Shown: positions 1,611-11,266 of the stretch, one piece after another
How positions within the stretch are numbered: the first letter of the stretch is position 1
How the letters are laid out: each line of letters starts with the position of its first letter
Source: a virus
Virus record (IMG/VR): IMGVR_UViG_3300028591_000144
Length of the DNA: 33,480 nt
Reading direction: 5' to 3' (one strand)
Notes under the pieces: model-generated
Told to the model about the DNA's origin: nothing
The model's input: the letters and a program-made list of their open reading frames with translations, nothing else
Databases searched by the model: none
Position numbers and translations under genes: made by a program

Positions 1611-1637
1611 GGTAGACGGAACGCCTTAAAGACTCCG
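1611..1637 (+). promoter_or_regulatory. 27-nt intercistronic box B copy 1 (GGTAGACGGAACGCCTTAAAGACTCCG)
   Basis: Exact 27-mer directly after the stop codon and before the next SD. 12 copies in the window. Confidence 0.75.
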
Positions 1638-1662
1638 AAACATTTATATAGGAGGAAGAAAA

Positions 1663-1980
1663 ATGATGATTAAGACTTTCACGGGAGCGATTATCGCTTC
1701 TGTGAGCAGCCAAAATGAATGGGAGCGCAACCGGCTCCCGTTCATCGTGGAGTACCGCACTCAGGGCGTGCGAATTCTTCACGGGGCCGATAGCATGGAG
1801 CTGGCTCTGTACTGGGCTCGCTTCAATGCTGAAGCCCACGCCGCAAATGCGGCACCCGCGGCAACACTGTTCATTTATGAACAGAACCGCGGGAAAGACA
1901 AGCGGTTCAACCGCTGGTTGGTTGGTGCCGTCATGTATGATGGCGAAACGGTCAGCCAGTGGGTCGAGGGTCAGGAATAA
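1663..1980 (+). CDS. hypothetical protein (105 aa)
   Basis: ORF track. SD TAGGAGGAAG. Confidence 0.65.
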   Translation: MMIKTFTGAIIASVSSQNEWERNRLPFIVEYRTQGVRILHGADSMELALYWARFNAEAHAANAAPAATLFIYEQNRGKDKRFNRWLVGAVMYDGETVSQWVEGQE

Positions 1981-2002
1981 CATCCTGACCCTCTTTTTTT
2001 TT
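1965..2002 (+). terminator. rho-independent terminator
   Basis: gagggtcagga-ataaca-tcctgaccctc + T9. Confidence 0.85.
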
Positions 2003-2043
2003 GCCTTACGGCAAACCACGACTCACACAGCAAATCTATTCGC

Positions 2044-2085
2044 CTGCCCCTGCTGGGATGGGTCGGGCCGCAAGGAACGAATTTT
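2044..2085 (+). repeat. Module-A G-triplet box copy 3
   Basis: ctgcccctgctgggatgggtcgggccgcaagg. Confidence 0.7.
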
Positions 2086-2296
2086 ACAAAACAAAAGTAA
2101 CCGAAAAAACACAAAACAAAAGTGACAAAGCCAAGAGAGAAAGAAAAAATCCTGATAGTCGCATGCCACGTGCGCAAACCCCCTGTATTTACTGGACTTT
2201 TCAAGATATACGAAAAAAAATATTGAAAAAAAAATATTTTTGATATATAAAAGAATCACAACAGGCAAAAAGAAAAAACAGAAAGGGGAATGAAAT

Positions 2297-2686
2297 ATGA
2301 CTAACTGGCATGAAGTCCAGCAAGACTGGATAGGATATGAAATCAAAGATACTGATATCCCTATCCATGATTGGTGGGACCACGAAGACAGGACAACATA
2401 CATATATTGTCACGTGGCCCTCGGGACAGTTGTCTTTGTTGCTCCGGACCGTTACGGCAATGAAGACATTGCCACAGTGTTCACAAACACCGGTATAATC
2501 GGGGTTGTGAACGTCAAGACGTACAGGTTCTTGACAATGTACGTCACGTCTCAAAGTAAGCTGTTAGATGCTTACACGAGAGCACGTGGCAAGGGGAATG
2601 AACTCCCATTACCGCAAGAAACTCTTTTAGCGGTAAGAGAGTTATACAAGAATCCTGAGGCTCGAGTTAGATTGGAAATGACCTGA
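2297..2686 (+). CDS. hypothetical protein (129 aa)
   Basis: ORF track. SD AAAGGGGAATGAAAT. Confidence 0.6.
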   Translation: MTNWHEVQQDWIGYEIKDTDIPIHDWWDHEDRTTYIYCHVALGTVVFVAPDRYGNEDIATVFTNTGIIGVVNVKTYRFLTMYVTSQSKLLDAYTRARGKGNELPLPQETLLAVRELYKNPEARVRLEMT

Positions 2687-2696
2687 GCTTCGCCCC

Positions 2697-2718
2697 AAGG
2701 GGACGGGGTAAAGTCCCC
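2697..2718 (+). promoter_or_regulatory. intercistronic hairpin ggggac-GGGGTAAA-gtcccc
   Basis: Stem-loop with the GGGGTAAA loop also found at 4553-4572 and 5839-5858. Confidence 0.45.
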
Positions 2719-2747
2719 ACTAAATAACAAAGAAAGGATATGAAAAC

Positions 2748-2933
2748 ATGGCTGAAAAACCCACCCTGTATTTCGTTATGTGCTTGGAATACAAGCACAA
2801 AGATGGAACCATCACAAAGGATATGACCCTTGCGATGGTCAATGACGAAGAGTTGGCGAACAAGAATGCGCTTCTCTGGCAGAATGAACCGGAGTGCATT
2901 GGCGACATTGTTGTCCGCCCAGTAAAGTCTTAA
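2748..2933 (+). CDS. hypothetical protein (61 aa)
   Basis: ORF track. SD AAAGGAT. Confidence 0.55.
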   Translation: MAEKPTLYFVMCLEYKHKDGTITKDMTLAMVNDEELANKNALLWQNEPECIGDIVVRPVKS

Positions 2934-2941
2934 ACACTGAA

Positions 2942-2968
2942 GGTAGACGGAACGCCTTAAAGACTCCG
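2942..2968 (+). promoter_or_regulatory. box B copy 2
   Basis: Exact 27-mer. Confidence 0.75.
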
Positions 2969-2995
2969 ATACTTTAAAAGAAAGGAGAACGAAAA

Positions 2996-3079
2996 ATGCA
3001 AACTGTTATCGCAATTGCCGCGATTATTATCGCAAGTATCATCTTCTGCATCGCACATCTCTACAACATGATGCAATAA
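2996..3079 (+). CDS. small hydrophobic peptide (27 aa, MQTVIAIAAIIIASIIFCIAHLYNMMQ)
   Basis: SD AAAGGAGAA 8 nt upstream. Single predicted TM helix. Followed by hairpin. Confidence 0.5.
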   Translation: MQTVIAIAAIIIASIIFCIAHLYNMMQ

Positions 3080-3146
3080 GACCCACTGGGCCTCTTGGAA
3101 AGAGAATCCAAGAGGCCCAAAGAAAAACAAAAGTACTATACTTCGA

Positions 3147-3190
3147 TGCGCCGTGCTGGGTAGGGCTGGGTCGCAAATATCGAATTTAAC
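3147..3190 (+). repeat. Module-A G-triplet box copy 4
   Basis: gcgccgtgctgggtagggctgggtcgcaaatatcgaattt. Confidence 0.7.
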
Positions 3191-3442
3191 AAATAACAAA
3201 TAAGCGAAAAAGACAAAAACAAATTAAGCTAATCCAAAAGAGGAAAGAAAATTCCTATAATTAAAATGCTAGGCGCAAAGAGCCCCTATTTATTGGGGTT
3301 TTCAAGATATACGAAAAAAATATTGCAAAAAAAATTTTTTTGATATAAGTTGTAATTGTCCTCAGCAAGAAACAAAAAAACGGCACGCACCACCGCAAGG
3401 GCGTGAAACTCCGTAGGCTGTAGGACAGAAAGGAAGTACACC

Positions 3443-9432: not shown

Positions 9433-9470
9433 CCGCACGTGCTGGGTAGGGCTGGGCAGCAAAAGCCGAG
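9433..9470 (+). repeat. Module-A G-triplet box copy 9
   Basis: Canonical sequence. Confidence 0.75.
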
Positions 9471-9715
9471 TTTAAGGCTATGAAATAAAACAAAAAAAGA
9501 CAAAACAAAAACGATAATTCCAAGAGCAAAGATAAAATTCCTATAATTAAAATATTATGCGCAGAAAGCCCCTATTTACTGGGGGTTTTGAAGATATATT
9601 AAAAAAAATATTGCAAAAAAAATATTTTTAATATAAGTTGTAATTGTCCTCGACAAACAATAAAAAAAAATTTAAAAGTCCTGCTTGAGGACAGCAGGCA
9701 GAAAGAGGTTACCTT

Positions 9716-10081
9716 ATGACCTATCTTTACAAACCCGAATGGCTCGAAAAGATTCTGTCTCTGTATGAGGACATTGAGTTCTTTATTCAGGACTGCAATT
9801 CTCTGTATCAGCAGATTCAGGGCGAGAGCGACCGCTTTCTTGACGGTCTGGACTGGGAATTCCATAATGGGATTAAGATTCTGTATGGTGAAAGCGTTGG
9901 AGTTAACTACCTCAACAAAATTGCCGACCTTAAGGATATTGACGTTATCCTTAAAGACTACAATCCTCAGGACTTACTTCGTTATGGGCAAGAGATTCTT
10001 GAAGAGTCTCGAAAAGAACTTGCTAATCTGGAAAAAGATTGGCGAGAGACCCTTGACCGCTGGGATGCGGAATGTAAATAA
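9716..10081 (+). CDS. hypothetical protein (121 aa)
   Basis: ORF track. SD AGAGGTTAC. Confidence 0.6.
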   Translation: MTYLYKPEWLEKILSLYEDIEFFIQDCNSLYQQIQGESDRFLDGLDWEFHNGIKILYGESVGVNYLNKIADLKDIDVILKDYNPQDLLRYGQEILEESRKELANLEKDWRETLDRWDAECK

Positions 10082-10090
10082 GCACAATAA

Positions 10091-10117
10091 GGTAGACGGA
10101 ACGCCTTAAAGACTCCG
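10091..10117 (+). promoter_or_regulatory. box B copy 10
   Basis: Exact 27-mer. Confidence 0.75.
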
Positions 10118-10146
10118 CAACTTATACTTAAAAAAGGAGATTCAAT

Positions 10147-10377
10147 ATGAAAAAATTTGCATTACTTTGCAGTATCGGCTCTCATGAATATATTAATGGT
10201 AAACATGTTATCAACTGCACGGTTAAGGACATGTTTATTGTGCGAGAAGCTGACACTGCTCAAGAGTTAGCTCCATATTGCCCTCAGCGCGTTATTTATG
10301 AAGATGGATATTGGAAATCTTTCAGTATCGAACCTCGTCGCCGGGCAAAAAGCAGTCTTGCTCCATACTTAAAGTAA
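10147..10377 (+). CDS. hypothetical protein (76 aa)
   Basis: ORF track. SD AAAAGGAGATT. Confidence 0.6.
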   Translation: MKKFALLCSIGSHEYINGKHVINCTVKDMFIVREADTAQELAPYCPQRVIYEDGYWKSFSIEPRRRAKSSLAPYLK

Positions 10378-10385
10378 AATAAACA

Positions 10386-10412
10386 GGTAGACGGAACGCC
10401 TTAAAGACTCCG
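10386..10412 (+). promoter_or_regulatory. box B copy 11
   Basis: Exact 27-mer. Confidence 0.75.
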
Positions 10413-10446
10413 CAATTTTATAAAAAAAATAGAAAGATTTTATTAT

Positions 10447-10494
10447 ATGCTTATAATTATTGTGTTTTTTATCTTAGGGAGTCTATTTGATTAA
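10447..10494 (+). CDS. tiny hydrophobic peptide MLIIIVFFILGSLFD (15 aa)
   Basis: Paralog of the 6425 and 12094 peptides. Followed by a terminator. Confidence 0.5.
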   Translation: MLIIIVFFILGSLFD

Positions 10495-10503
10495 TACAAA
10501 AAA

Positions 10504-10538
10504 AGAGAAGAGTATAAAAAACTCTTCTCTTTTTTTTT
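10504..10538 (+). terminator. rho-independent terminator
   Basis: agagaagagt-ataaaaaa-ctcttctct + T9. Confidence 0.85.
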
Positions 10539-10540
10539 AA

Positions 10541-10580
10541 CCGCCCGTGCTGGGTAGGGGTGGGCAACAAAAGCCGAGCT
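10541..10580 (+). repeat. Module-A G-triplet box copy 10
   Basis: ccgcccgtgctgggtaggggtgggcaacaaaagccgag. Confidence 0.7.
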
Positions 10581-10852
10581 TTAAACTGTAAAATAAAACA
10601 AAAAAAGATAAAACAAAAGCGGATAAAACAAAAGAGCAAATAAAAATCCCGAATTATTTTTAAGATTGCTCAAAGTACCAGTAAATACAGGGCTTTTGAA
10701 GATATATTAAAAAAAATATTGCAAAAAAAATTTTTTTGATATAAGTTGTGATTGTCAACAGGAAGCAAAACAAAAAACCTGTTGCCCCATAGGATAAGGT
10801 CGGGTTACAATTCTTATCCATTTCAAAATTTTTTCTTTAAGGAGTAAAAGCC

Positions 10853-11230
10853 ATGACTTACTTCAAAAACAATGAATGCCACGAGCTGTATGACACCATA
10901 TATGACATCCTGACTGATTGCATTGACCACAACATTGAGTCTGCTGAACTCAATCTCTCCGTCCGCAAAGATGGCATTGAAGCGAAAATCAATGACATTT
11001 ATGCGAAGTATACCACTGAATACCACTTCGGAGAGTGGAAAGCCTCCGACTTTGCCGAAGACAACTTCAGCGATGAAGACTATAAGACCTATGAAGCTCT
11101 CTCTTCTGAGTATCAAGATCTTGAAGAGTATCCCGATAAAGAGCTCCCGAAGCTTCGTAAACTTCTTAAAGAAGCTCAGGATATCGCCAAATTCCTCATT
11201 GAGGAATATGACGGCGAAATTCTTAAGTAA
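10853..11230 (+). CDS. acidic protein (125 aa)
   Basis: ORF track. SD TAAGGAGTAA. Confidence 0.65.
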   Translation: MTYFKNNECHELYDTIYDILTDCIDHNIESAELNLSVRKDGIEAKINDIYAKYTTEYHFGEWKASDFAEDNFSDEDYKTYEALSSEYQDLEEYPDKELPKLRKLLKEAQDIAKFLIEEYDGEILK

Positions 11231-11239
11231 AACTCAGCA

Positions 11240-11266
11240 GGTAGACGGAACGCCTTAAAGACTCCG
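11240..11266 (+). promoter_or_regulatory. box B copy 12
   Basis: Exact 27-mer, here immediately followed by a degenerate G-triplet box. Confidence 0.75.

Follow-up and report, generated by a model that had tools for sequence, protein, structure and literature searches.

What is the function of a short, near-invariant sequence that recurs between the genes of the earliest operons of a phage, in a single orientation and always close to a stop codon? The question is raised by IMG/VR record IMGVR_UViG_3300028591_000144, a viral DNA of 33,480 nucleotides (nt), hereafter the window, the first 11.3 kb of which carry 12 copies of a 27-nt sequence, hereafter the box. An earlier reading made from the letters alone (the sequence-only reading) had likened the box to promoters of the T7/SP6 type and had listed a processing site and a translational operator among the alternatives. 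We tentatively favour an RNA element that marks cistron boundaries or serves as an operator and is read by a conserved factor, the shuffling of gene cassettes being a by-product; this reading is possible, somewhat short of probable, and is weighed below against its rivals.

A scan of the window for GGTAGACGGAACGCCTTAAAGACTCCG at up to 3 mismatches gave 12 copies, all on the + strand and spanning positions 1611-11266; the - strand and the sequence past 11266 have no match. Nine of the 12 match exactly, and three carry a single change (A6>C at 6132 and 7999, T17>A at 6371). The counts, the single orientation and the confinement to the first 11.3 kb are those of the sequence-only reading. Dinucleotide shuffles (n = 100) contained no match, the chance expectation being 0, and no partial copy of at least 13 nt occurs elsewhere in the window, which is an array of small + strand genes with a longest open reading frame (ORF) of 189 aa. 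The copies are the following.

1611-1637, + strand: copy 1, exact; 11 nt past the TGA of ORF 1207-1599, 25 nt to the ATG of ORF 1663-1980.
2942-2968, + strand: copy 2, exact; 8 nt past the TAA of ORF 2748-2933, 27 nt to the ATG at 2996 (27-aa hydrophobic peptide).
4848-4874, + strand: copy 3, exact; 10 nt past the TAA of ORF 4613-4837, 28 nt to the ATG at 4903.
6132-6158, + strand: copy 4, A6>C; 9 nt past the TAA of ORF 5898-6122, 36 nt to the ATG at 6195.
6371-6397, + strand: copy 5, T17>A, with G at -1; 11 nt past the TAA of ORF 6195-6359, 27 nt to the ATG at 6425 (15-aa peptide).
7337-7363, + strand: copy 6, exact; 8 nt past the TAA of ORF 6861-7328, 39 nt to the ATG at 7403.
7735-7761, + strand: copy 7, exact; 8 nt past the TAA of ORF 7403-7726, 39 nt to the ATG at 7801.
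7999-8025, + strand: copy 8, A6>C; 9 nt past the TAG of ORF 7801-7989, 39 nt to the ATG at 8065.
8957-8983, + strand: copy 9, exact; 7 nt past the TAA of ORF 8614-8949, 33 nt to the ATG at 9017; orthologous copy at 536 in the close relative L020.
10091-10117, + strand: copy 10, exact; 9 nt past the TAA of ORF 9716-10081, 29 nt to the ATG at 10147.
10386-10412, + strand: copy 11, exact; 8 nt past the TAA of ORF 10147-10377, 34 nt to the ATG at 10447 (15-aa peptide).
11240-11266, + strand: copy 12, exact, orphan; 9 nt past the TAA of ORF 10853-11230, no downstream gene and no terminator.

All 12 window copies thus start 7-11 nt past the stop codon of a + strand ORF. A metagenome scan with a 20-base core of the box retrieved two related phages, L005 (54.7-kb contig) and L006 (10.6-kb contig), with 3 boxes each; when their sites are added to those of the window, the same gap of 7-11 nt is found in 17 of 18 cases, and the eighteenth copy itself contains the stop codon. 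In 11 of the 12 window copies, 25-39 nt separate the box from the next ATG, which has a Shine-Dalgarno sequence of its own, and this distance ranges from 25 to 63 nt across phages. The sequence-only reading, which placed the box between a stop codon and the next Shine-Dalgarno sequence, was accurate in its description, the copy at 11240 being the one that lacks a downstream gene. That copy is directly followed by the G/T-rich element that starts a new module, and the same orphan arrangement is kept in L020 at 2897. Because the gap to the stop codon is tight, the distance to the ATG loose and the orphan copy kept in L020, the box belongs with the upstream cistron: it is anchored to that cistron and not to the downstream gene.

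Further copies were found in L020 and in two other contigs, L029 and L030, so that a comparison could be made of some 25 copies in all, drawn from assemblies of independent origin (ENA, JGI and Logan). They vary at only 5 box positions, with one change per copy: G>A at position 2, A>C at 6 (twice), C>T at 12, T>C at 16 and T>A at 17 (twice). The C12>T change is that of the L020 orthologue of copy 11 (10386), and G2>A creates the TAG stop codon of the upstream gene within the box. The base at -1 is a purine in 20 of 20 aligned copies, which gives the pattern R-GGTAGNCGGAAYGCCNNAAAGACTCCG; at the other end, the conserved block stops at G27, and positions +1 to +4 differ among copies and phages. 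No homologue of the 25 immediate-early proteins of the window was detectable in L005 or L006, and early genes that do have orthologues elsewhere share 56-93% identity at the protein level and 69-88% at the DNA level. One of the conserved early proteins, of 66 aa (27753-27953), is 93% identical between phages. Between phages in which the genes flanking it are unrelated, the box is unchanged or has a single substitution. Given this near-identity amid unrelated neighbours, and the 69-88% DNA identity of shared genes, the box is strongly constrained.

Outside this group the box was not found. Distant loci anchored on a DUF8033 gene, which have no immediate-early modules, contain no box at up to 8 mismatches (L016, L017, L021) or up to 9 (L024, L025, L028). 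A scan of 185,579 species genomes with a 19-nt core gave 4 unrelated single matches, about the chance number by our own estimate from the size of the collection, and no CRISPR-like arrays. Hence, the box is specific to this phage group. Three matches in high-GC metagenomes lie inside coding sequence (ERLKDS) and were set aside as chance, and a homologue search with a box-flanked protein returned near-identical contigs only, with no divergent bearers of the box. Separately, in L030, the gene at 12-443 is a homologue of the box-flanked L005 gene at 4426-4734 to which an unrelated 70-aa N-terminus is fused in frame, 143 aa in all; either an immediate-early gene has swapped a domain or the assembly is chimeric.

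Comparison of 12 kb of the window with GenBank phages (megablast), of the box with GenBank phages (blastn) and pattern scans of IMG/VR with the box gave no match. Two window proteins have homologues on metagenomic contigs that reach 228-240 kb. Candidates for complete genomes are ENA ERZ28653767 scaffold_89 (228 kb) and contigs of 229-240 kb. The distant relatives L016 (210-4261, - strand) and L021 (932-4926, - strand) carry a terminase-like gene (583 aa) and a YonG_N-domain gene. Each of these late-type genes has 2-10 TAG codons in frame but neither TAA nor TGA, which indicates that these relatives recode TAG. The terminase shares about 47% identity with its counterparts in Enterococcus phages H1 and EF1 and in Geobacillus virus E3, and 43% with that of phAss-1, a TAG-recoded gut phage (PMC10607447). 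On the strength of the large contigs, the TAG-recoded relatives and the likeness of the terminase to those of large Bacillota phages, the window is identified as the early arm of a lineage of uncultured phages; the late genes of its relatives are TAG-recoded, and its host is probably a member of the Bacillota. The lineage was found in gut and rumen samples.

The first 11.3 kb of the window consist of about 10 repeated modules. Each follows the order terminator, G/T-rich GTGCTGGGTAGGGCTGGG, small hairpin, extended -10 promoter (TTGCAA...TGATATAAG), usually a leader hairpin, 1-4 small genes and terminator. Both sequence reading and a promoter/terminator scan assign the transcription units of the window host-type promoters and hairpin terminators. 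The same scan put no + strand promoter-like or terminator-like site on the boxes and, as the sequence-only reading had noted, no sigma-70 promoter coincides with them.

This organization bears directly on the idea that the box is a promoter for a phage-encoded or virion-delivered RNA polymerase, which would give the downstream genes a second, phage-controlled round of expression. An asymmetric 27-nt motif, near-invariant within and between phages, co-oriented and intergenic, is indeed the signature of T7/SP6-type promoters, and 11 of the 12 window copies have a gene with a Shine-Dalgarno sequence 25-39 nt downstream. The box also contains GACTC, presumably present in the T7 promoter as well. 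Relatives encode a YonG_N-domain protein, and YonG is, we assume, an SPbeta gene. SPbeta encodes the unusual polymerase YonO, the promoter of which is still undefined (PMC5467207). However, the would-be initiation region (+1 to +4) is not conserved, the spacing is fixed to the upstream stop codon rather than to the downstream gene, one copy overlaps that stop codon, and a copy without a gene is kept in two phages. Every copy is internal to a short operon already equipped with a host-type promoter, leader and terminator, and the copies keep to the first-expressed region, whereas promoters of the T7 type are located outside the early region that the host polymerase transcribes. Finally, no ORF of the window exceeds 189 aa, no polymerase domain was seen in its 33 kb, part of a genome of about 230 kb, or in about 200 kb of relatives' loci, which cover a small share of their genomes, and the term "RNA polymerase" is never used in the paper on the related phAss-1 genome. 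Length, invariance and orientation are where the likeness stood, and nothing further positive was added. In view of the unconserved +1 to +4, the anchoring to the stop codon, the orphan copy, the host-type operon promoters and the lack of a visible polymerase, the promoter reading is left unsupported, without being refuted, and we regard it as unlikely. The processing site and the translational operator, also named by the sequence-only reading, fit the evidence better.

As RNA, the box and its conserved -1 purine can form a minimal H-type pseudoknot with loops of 3, 2 and 6 nt. Stem 1 (5 bp, one of them G-U) pairs A-2 A-1 G1 G2 U3 with G13 C14 C15 U16 U17 (AAGGU/GCCUU), and stem 2 (4 bp) pairs C7 G8 G9 A10 with U24 C25 C26 G27 (CGGA/UCCG). 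Loops 1, 2 and 3 are AGA, AC and the A-rich AAAGAC, respectively. The statement in the sequence-only reading that the box is not a hairpin holds for a simple hairpin (minimum free energy -3.2 kcal/mol, z = +0.57, a value that refers to helices taken singly and not to the energy of the pseudoknot), and no inverted repeat occurs in or around the box; the possible pseudoknot had been overlooked. With the loop ranges of the neighbouring pseudoknot family described below, an H-type pseudoknot is possible in 0.16% of 5000 shuffles of the 33-mer.

The variants can be placed on this fold. The pair between -1 and 16 is A-U in 18 copies, G-U in 1 and G-C in 1, and the sole copy with T16>C has G at -1, which restores the pair. 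Of the other changed positions, 6, 12 and 17 are unpaired in a strict model without the -2:17 pair. Position 2 is the only changed position that hits a stem unrepaired, and it is the one that makes the upstream stop codon. A relative contains an element (GGC-A-UGGGGGA-U-GCC-UUAAAA-UCCCCCA) 11 nt past a stop codon that has GCCUUAAA in common with the box and a longer stem 2. In RNAfold predictions, CUCC of the box pairs with a downstream GGAG in 3 of 5 contexts; as this pairing excludes stem 2, a switch is conceivable.

Other junctions of the same region provide a comparison. Inside the operons of the first 11.3 kb, gene junctions hold either a box, a GC-rich H-type pseudoknot (2692, 4547, 5834) or a hairpin (3720), and the last gene of each early operon is followed by a terminator hairpin in place of a box. 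Consequently, every cistron ends in a structured or conserved element. In the operons past 12 kb, the genes are tightly packed and none of the three kinds of junction element was found. The elements are as follows.

2692-2718, + strand: H-type pseudoknot GCCCC-AA-GGGGAC-GGGGT-AAA-GTCCCC, a few nt past the stop codon of the first gene of its operon.
4547-4573, + strand: H-type pseudoknot GCCC-T-GCCGG-CG-GGGT-AAAACA-CCGGC, after the first gene of its operon.
5834-5860, + strand: H-type pseudoknot GCCC-T-GCCGGTG-GGGC-AAAA-CACCGGC, a paralogue of the 4547 element with a changed stem 2.
3720-3751, + strand: simple hairpin GGTTGAAC / GTTCAACC, between ORFs 3443-3709 and 3770-4060, read from the sequence.
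L005 788-813 and 2912-2940, L006 581-606, L016 19711-19740, L024 11691-11718: further pseudoknots of the GC-rich family.

Seven GC-rich pseudoknots fit a strict descriptor in 55.7 kb, as against 0-1 in shuffles. They have an A-rich loop 3, start about 6-21 nt past stop codons and, in immediate-early operons, always come after the first gene. Their stems differ yet stay complementary (GGGGAC/GTCCCC, GCCGG/CCGGC, GGGGGC/GCCCCC), so we take these junction elements, as judged by their sequences, to be genuine H-type pseudoknots with covarying stems.

These features are consistent with a role of the box as a cis-acting element of immediate-early polycistronic messenger RNAs (mRNAs), where it would mark the boundaries between cistrons. 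Stem 1 of the pseudoknot would start 5-9 nt past the upstream stop codon, just beyond the footprint of the terminating ribosome, so that translation of the upstream cistron would not melt the fold. Since the stems are weak and every loop base is practically invariant, we infer a conserved, sequence-specific partner: a protein of the phage or of its host, or perhaps a small ligand. The complex of box and partner would act as post-transcriptional punctuation, giving internal cistrons a protected 3' boundary in parallel with what the terminator hairpin does for the last one, and it would direct cleavage into the AU-rich spacer that comes next. Gating of the next cistron is a further possibility, as the CUCC able to pair with the downstream GGAG is overlapped by UCCG, the 3' strand of stem 2. 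Two observations support a boundary or operator element of this kind: the equivalent junctions of sister operons hold GC-rich H-type pseudoknots, and the later operons of the window pack their genes tightly without such elements.

Several points weigh against it. Covariation is limited to a single pair, a count also reached in 93 of 500 column shuffles, and stem 2 is invariant. Taken singly, the helices are no stabler than shuffled sequence, as the z value above indicates, and the pseudoknot descriptor was chosen after inspection of the sequence. No partner protein, RNA end or ligand is known for the box, and no RNA complementary to it was found in the window or in Escherichia coli rRNA. Tight spacing to the stop codon could simply result from genome compaction, and orientation bias and intergenic placement fit a DNA site equally well. 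Strict invariance over 27 nt is, moreover, more typical of protein-DNA recognition, as in promoters or recombinase and nuclease sites, than of structural RNA.

That last point also fits a DNA site at which a phage regulator would block host RNA polymerase in an orientation-dependent, stoperator-like manner, shutting off the promoter-distal immediate-early cistrons. The layout is shared as well: stoperators are asymmetric, lie in short intergenic spaces, near or overlapping stop codons, and have their orientation tied to transcription (PMC9283540). Yet no box lies on any immediate-early promoter, so that there is no operator counterpart, and the first gene of every operon would escape control. 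The 27-bp box is also twice the length of the 13-bp monomer sites. At the DNA level, the covariation of the -1 purine with position 16 and the pseudoknot potential are left without an explanation, and the equivalent junctions hold RNA pseudoknots of non-conserved sequence. No DNA-binding or repressor candidate was identified in the sequence read, which is part of a genome of about 230 kb. Such a site has, in our view, only a small chance of being the answer.

The copies also behave as cassette borders. L006 differs from L005 by exactly one extra unit made of an untranslated region (UTR), a gene and a box. In the window, the UTR of about 30 nt downstream of copy 7 is almost identical to that of copy 8 and closely similar to that of copy 6, and three unrelated genes carry an almost identical box-plus-UTR unit. 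In the boundary or operator reading, recombination between identical boxes would add, delete and swap such cassettes as a by-product. Alternatively, this could be the very reason for the box: 27 bp of identity kept as a handle for the exchange, duplication and loss of early-gene cassettes within a phage or between co-infecting phages, with no regulatory role. The length, 27 bp, is about the minimum for efficient homologous recombination. The indel between L005 and L006 is exactly one cassette, the same box, at times together with the same UTR, accompanies unrelated genes, identical boxes occur in phages whose immediate-early genes are otherwise unrelated, and the PeSL cassettes of T4 offer a precedent (PMC2839356, PMC4122927). 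However, recombination is a side effect of PeSLs, which function as promoter-terminator units. A handle would need neither a fixed distance of 7-11 nt to the stop codon, nor a single orientation, nor a purine at -1. Second-order selection is, in addition, weak when set against near-zero substitutions at about 70% background DNA identity. A purely recombinational role is very unlikely.

Some features could also be explained if the box, in 12 copies on the most abundant first transcripts, acted in trans, as an RNA decoy or sponge for a host RNA-binding defence or regulator (Cas6-, ToxN- or CsrA-like), or if it were a tiny pseudoknot riboswitch gating the downstream ribosome-binding site. The copy number on immediate-early mRNAs, where anti-defence functions would be expected to cluster, is high. 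The loop of stem 1, as read from the sequence, shows ACGGA, a CsrA motif of the A(N)GGA type. The invariant loop bases in a small pseudoknot are reminiscent of aptamers that bind a ligand or a protein, preQ1-I among them, and the CUCC/GGAG pairing and stem 2 are mutually exclusive. Nevertheless, there is no Rfam match, the 185,579 species genomes gave their 4 unrelated singletons and no CRISPR-like arrays, a decoy has no need of a place tied to stop codons, and no expression platform is conserved across copies, the orphan having none. Neither possibility is supported, and together they are very unlikely. More speculatively, the box may be a riboregulator without precedent, a pseudoknot of about 29 nt read by a protein or metabolite that toggles between its fold and the CUCC:GGAG anti-Shine-Dalgarno pairing and so provides a giant, TAG-recoded phage with post-transcriptional control of its first-expressed genes one cistron at a time, or, equally unprecedented, a multi-copy mRNA decoy against a host RNA-binding defence; novelty of this kind is quite unlikely.

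A number of other candidates were considered and rejected. A CRISPR-repeat mimic or solitary repeat unit found no counterpart in the species genomes beyond the 4 unrelated single matches without arrays, a diverged mimic being still possible. Pairing with rRNA (TURBS- or epsilon-like tethering) was dropped as the best duplex with E. coli 16S, 23S or 5S rRNA was within the shuffled range, and the likeness in sense to AAGACGGAAAGACCCCG of 23S rRNA and to the segment 5' of helix 45 of 16S rRNA was judged coincidental. For a partner or guide RNA in the window, the longest complementary stretch was 12 nt (22896), again within the range of shuffles. A read-through or frameshift signal is discounted in that the gaps between stop codon and box fall in all three frames and the box has stops in two, so that no conserved extension is possible. 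With ops/RfaH-like sites, only GGTAG is in common. A -10-like element past the box occurs in the AT-rich UTRs of the window and is absent from L005 and L006. An Rfam search of the window, L005 and L006 at E <= 1 gave no match overlapping a box, and the proteins neighbouring the boxes gave nothing informative in Pfam, PHROGs or PDB.

The sequence-only reading had further pointed to a related sequence at 14905 and to a shared origin with a family of hairpins (hairpin C). The sequence exists, but it shares only CTTAAAGAC and TCCG with the box and is itself a perfect palindromic hairpin, a weak link; the shared origin rests on this resemblance of 9+4 nt. Long hairpins of this kind precede later promoters (14905-14960, 15600-15665, 22893-22950 and similar ones), and a short segment before each can pair with the 5' arm of the hairpin. 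At 14905, GAGCGUCUUAAGACGCUC overlaps GCUCCGUUUGC, which makes the two folds mutually exclusive, as in a terminator/antiterminator pair.

The early modules contain other recurrent features. The G/T-rich element, GTGCTGGGTAGGGCTGGG in the window and GCTGTGGGGTGTGTTGGG in many copies in L005 and L006, opens every immediate-early module right after the preceding terminator; it has 3 or 4 G-runs and a likeness to E. coli Chi (GCTGGTGG). A long leader hairpin stands between promoter and first gene, with an apical loop ACCGCAAGG common to the phages and stems that differ; at its base, ACGG...AAACUCCGU is similar to the box ends (ACGG...AAAGACUCCG). In several phages, short genes that encode hydrophobic peptides (MLTIIIFMILGSLFD, MLIIIVFFILGSLFD, MIIIVLYFLMSLMNS and others, about 15 aa long) recur as the last cistron before operon terminators. 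Their positions are listed below.

Window 165-190, 910-940, 2045-2075, 3150-3175, 4090-4115, 5170-5195, 6555-6585, 8330-8360, 9435-9465, 10545-10575, 11285-11310, 11600-11625: G/T-rich element.
Window 1128-1195, 3357-3430, 5378-5450; L005 533-590, 1445-1500; L006 about 320-375: leader hairpins.
Window 6425-6472, 10447-10494, 12094-12144: hydrophobic peptide genes, with 2996-3079 as a 27-aa version.
L005 4836-4883; L006 2784-2831, 4346-4393, 4747-4794, 6328-6375 (ends approximate): hydrophobic peptide genes of the relatives.

Stop codons of the immediate-early genes of the window are TAA in 20 cases, TGA in 4 and TAG in 1. ORF 5898-6122, a paralogue of ORF 4613-4837 with 70% identity, has an in-frame TGA at a conserved Trp (CPE*RR vs CPEWRQ) and would be either a pseudogene or a case of TGA read as Trp. 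At positions 1-60, the window has poly-T and then a run of about 24 G, which could be a contig end, a sequencing artefact or a physical genome end beside the immediate-early arm. Several promoter-preceded stretches without convincing ORFs (17240-17340, 25860-26130, 26135-26215, 27400-27650, 31980-32400) may encode small RNAs; amid them, a tRNA-Ser(CGA) gene was recognized at 26135-26215.

Time and again, short intergenic motifs of invariant sequence and fixed orientation, such as T7 promoters, stoperators, SAS and PeSL, have revealed how phages program expression and exchange genes. The box is the most conserved non-coding feature of the immediate-early arm and is kept between phages that share no neighbouring genes. 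As an RNA boundary or operator element, should it prove to be one, it would give a handle on how the relative output of dozens of tiny takeover or anti-defence genes is set, a compact part of about 30 nt for insulating cistrons, and a tag by which immediate-early regions, hence candidate anti-defence genes, could be found in metagenomes. A box that proved to be a promoter would instead imply a phage polymerase so far unrecognised.

Several known systems come close to the box. Stoperators of cluster A mycobacteriophages (L5 gp71-type) are, like it, asymmetric, near-invariant, multicopy, located in short intergenic spaces near stop codons and in one orientation (PMC9283540). However, they are 13 bp long, serve also as operators at promoters, act on DNA and are spread genome-wide in temperate phages, whereas the box has 27-28 nt and features of an RNA fold, is absent from promoters and is restricted to the immediate-early arm. 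The SAS/ESAS motifs of cluster K mycobacteriophages are also conserved, asymmetric, intergenic and in one orientation in the non-structural arm, are kept across subclusters before unrelated genes and sometimes contain the upstream stop codon (PMC3203893). SAS is a 13-bp motif 3-7 bp from the start codon that includes the Shine-Dalgarno core (PMC3203893), whereas the box keeps close to the upstream stop codon, at 25-63 nt from the following start, and lacks both GGAG and a Shine-Dalgarno sequence. PeSLs of T4-type phages recur between genes on either side of small, variable early ORFs and, as boxes do, delimit indels and replacements that distinguish close relatives (PMC2839356, PMC4122927). 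They consist of an early promoter and a stem-loop terminator over about 50-70 bp, and the box has neither. T7/SP6-type promoters share its length class, invariance, intergenic position and single orientation; the box differs from them in having no conserved initiation region, in sitting in host-transcribed early operons, in its anchoring to stop codons and in its orphan copy. The RNase III sites of T7 and the processing sites of SP82 and SPO1 early mRNAs are conserved elements between cistrons of host-transcribed early operons. RNase III sites of the T7 early/SP82 type are long duplex hairpins of about 20 bp, which the box cannot form. The T4 gene 32 operator is a small H-type pseudoknot followed by AU-rich unstructured RNA up to the ribosome-binding site, a single site with a known ligand. 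The box is therefore grouped with the intergenic regulatory repeats of phages, each of the systems compared having at least one defining feature that it does not share.

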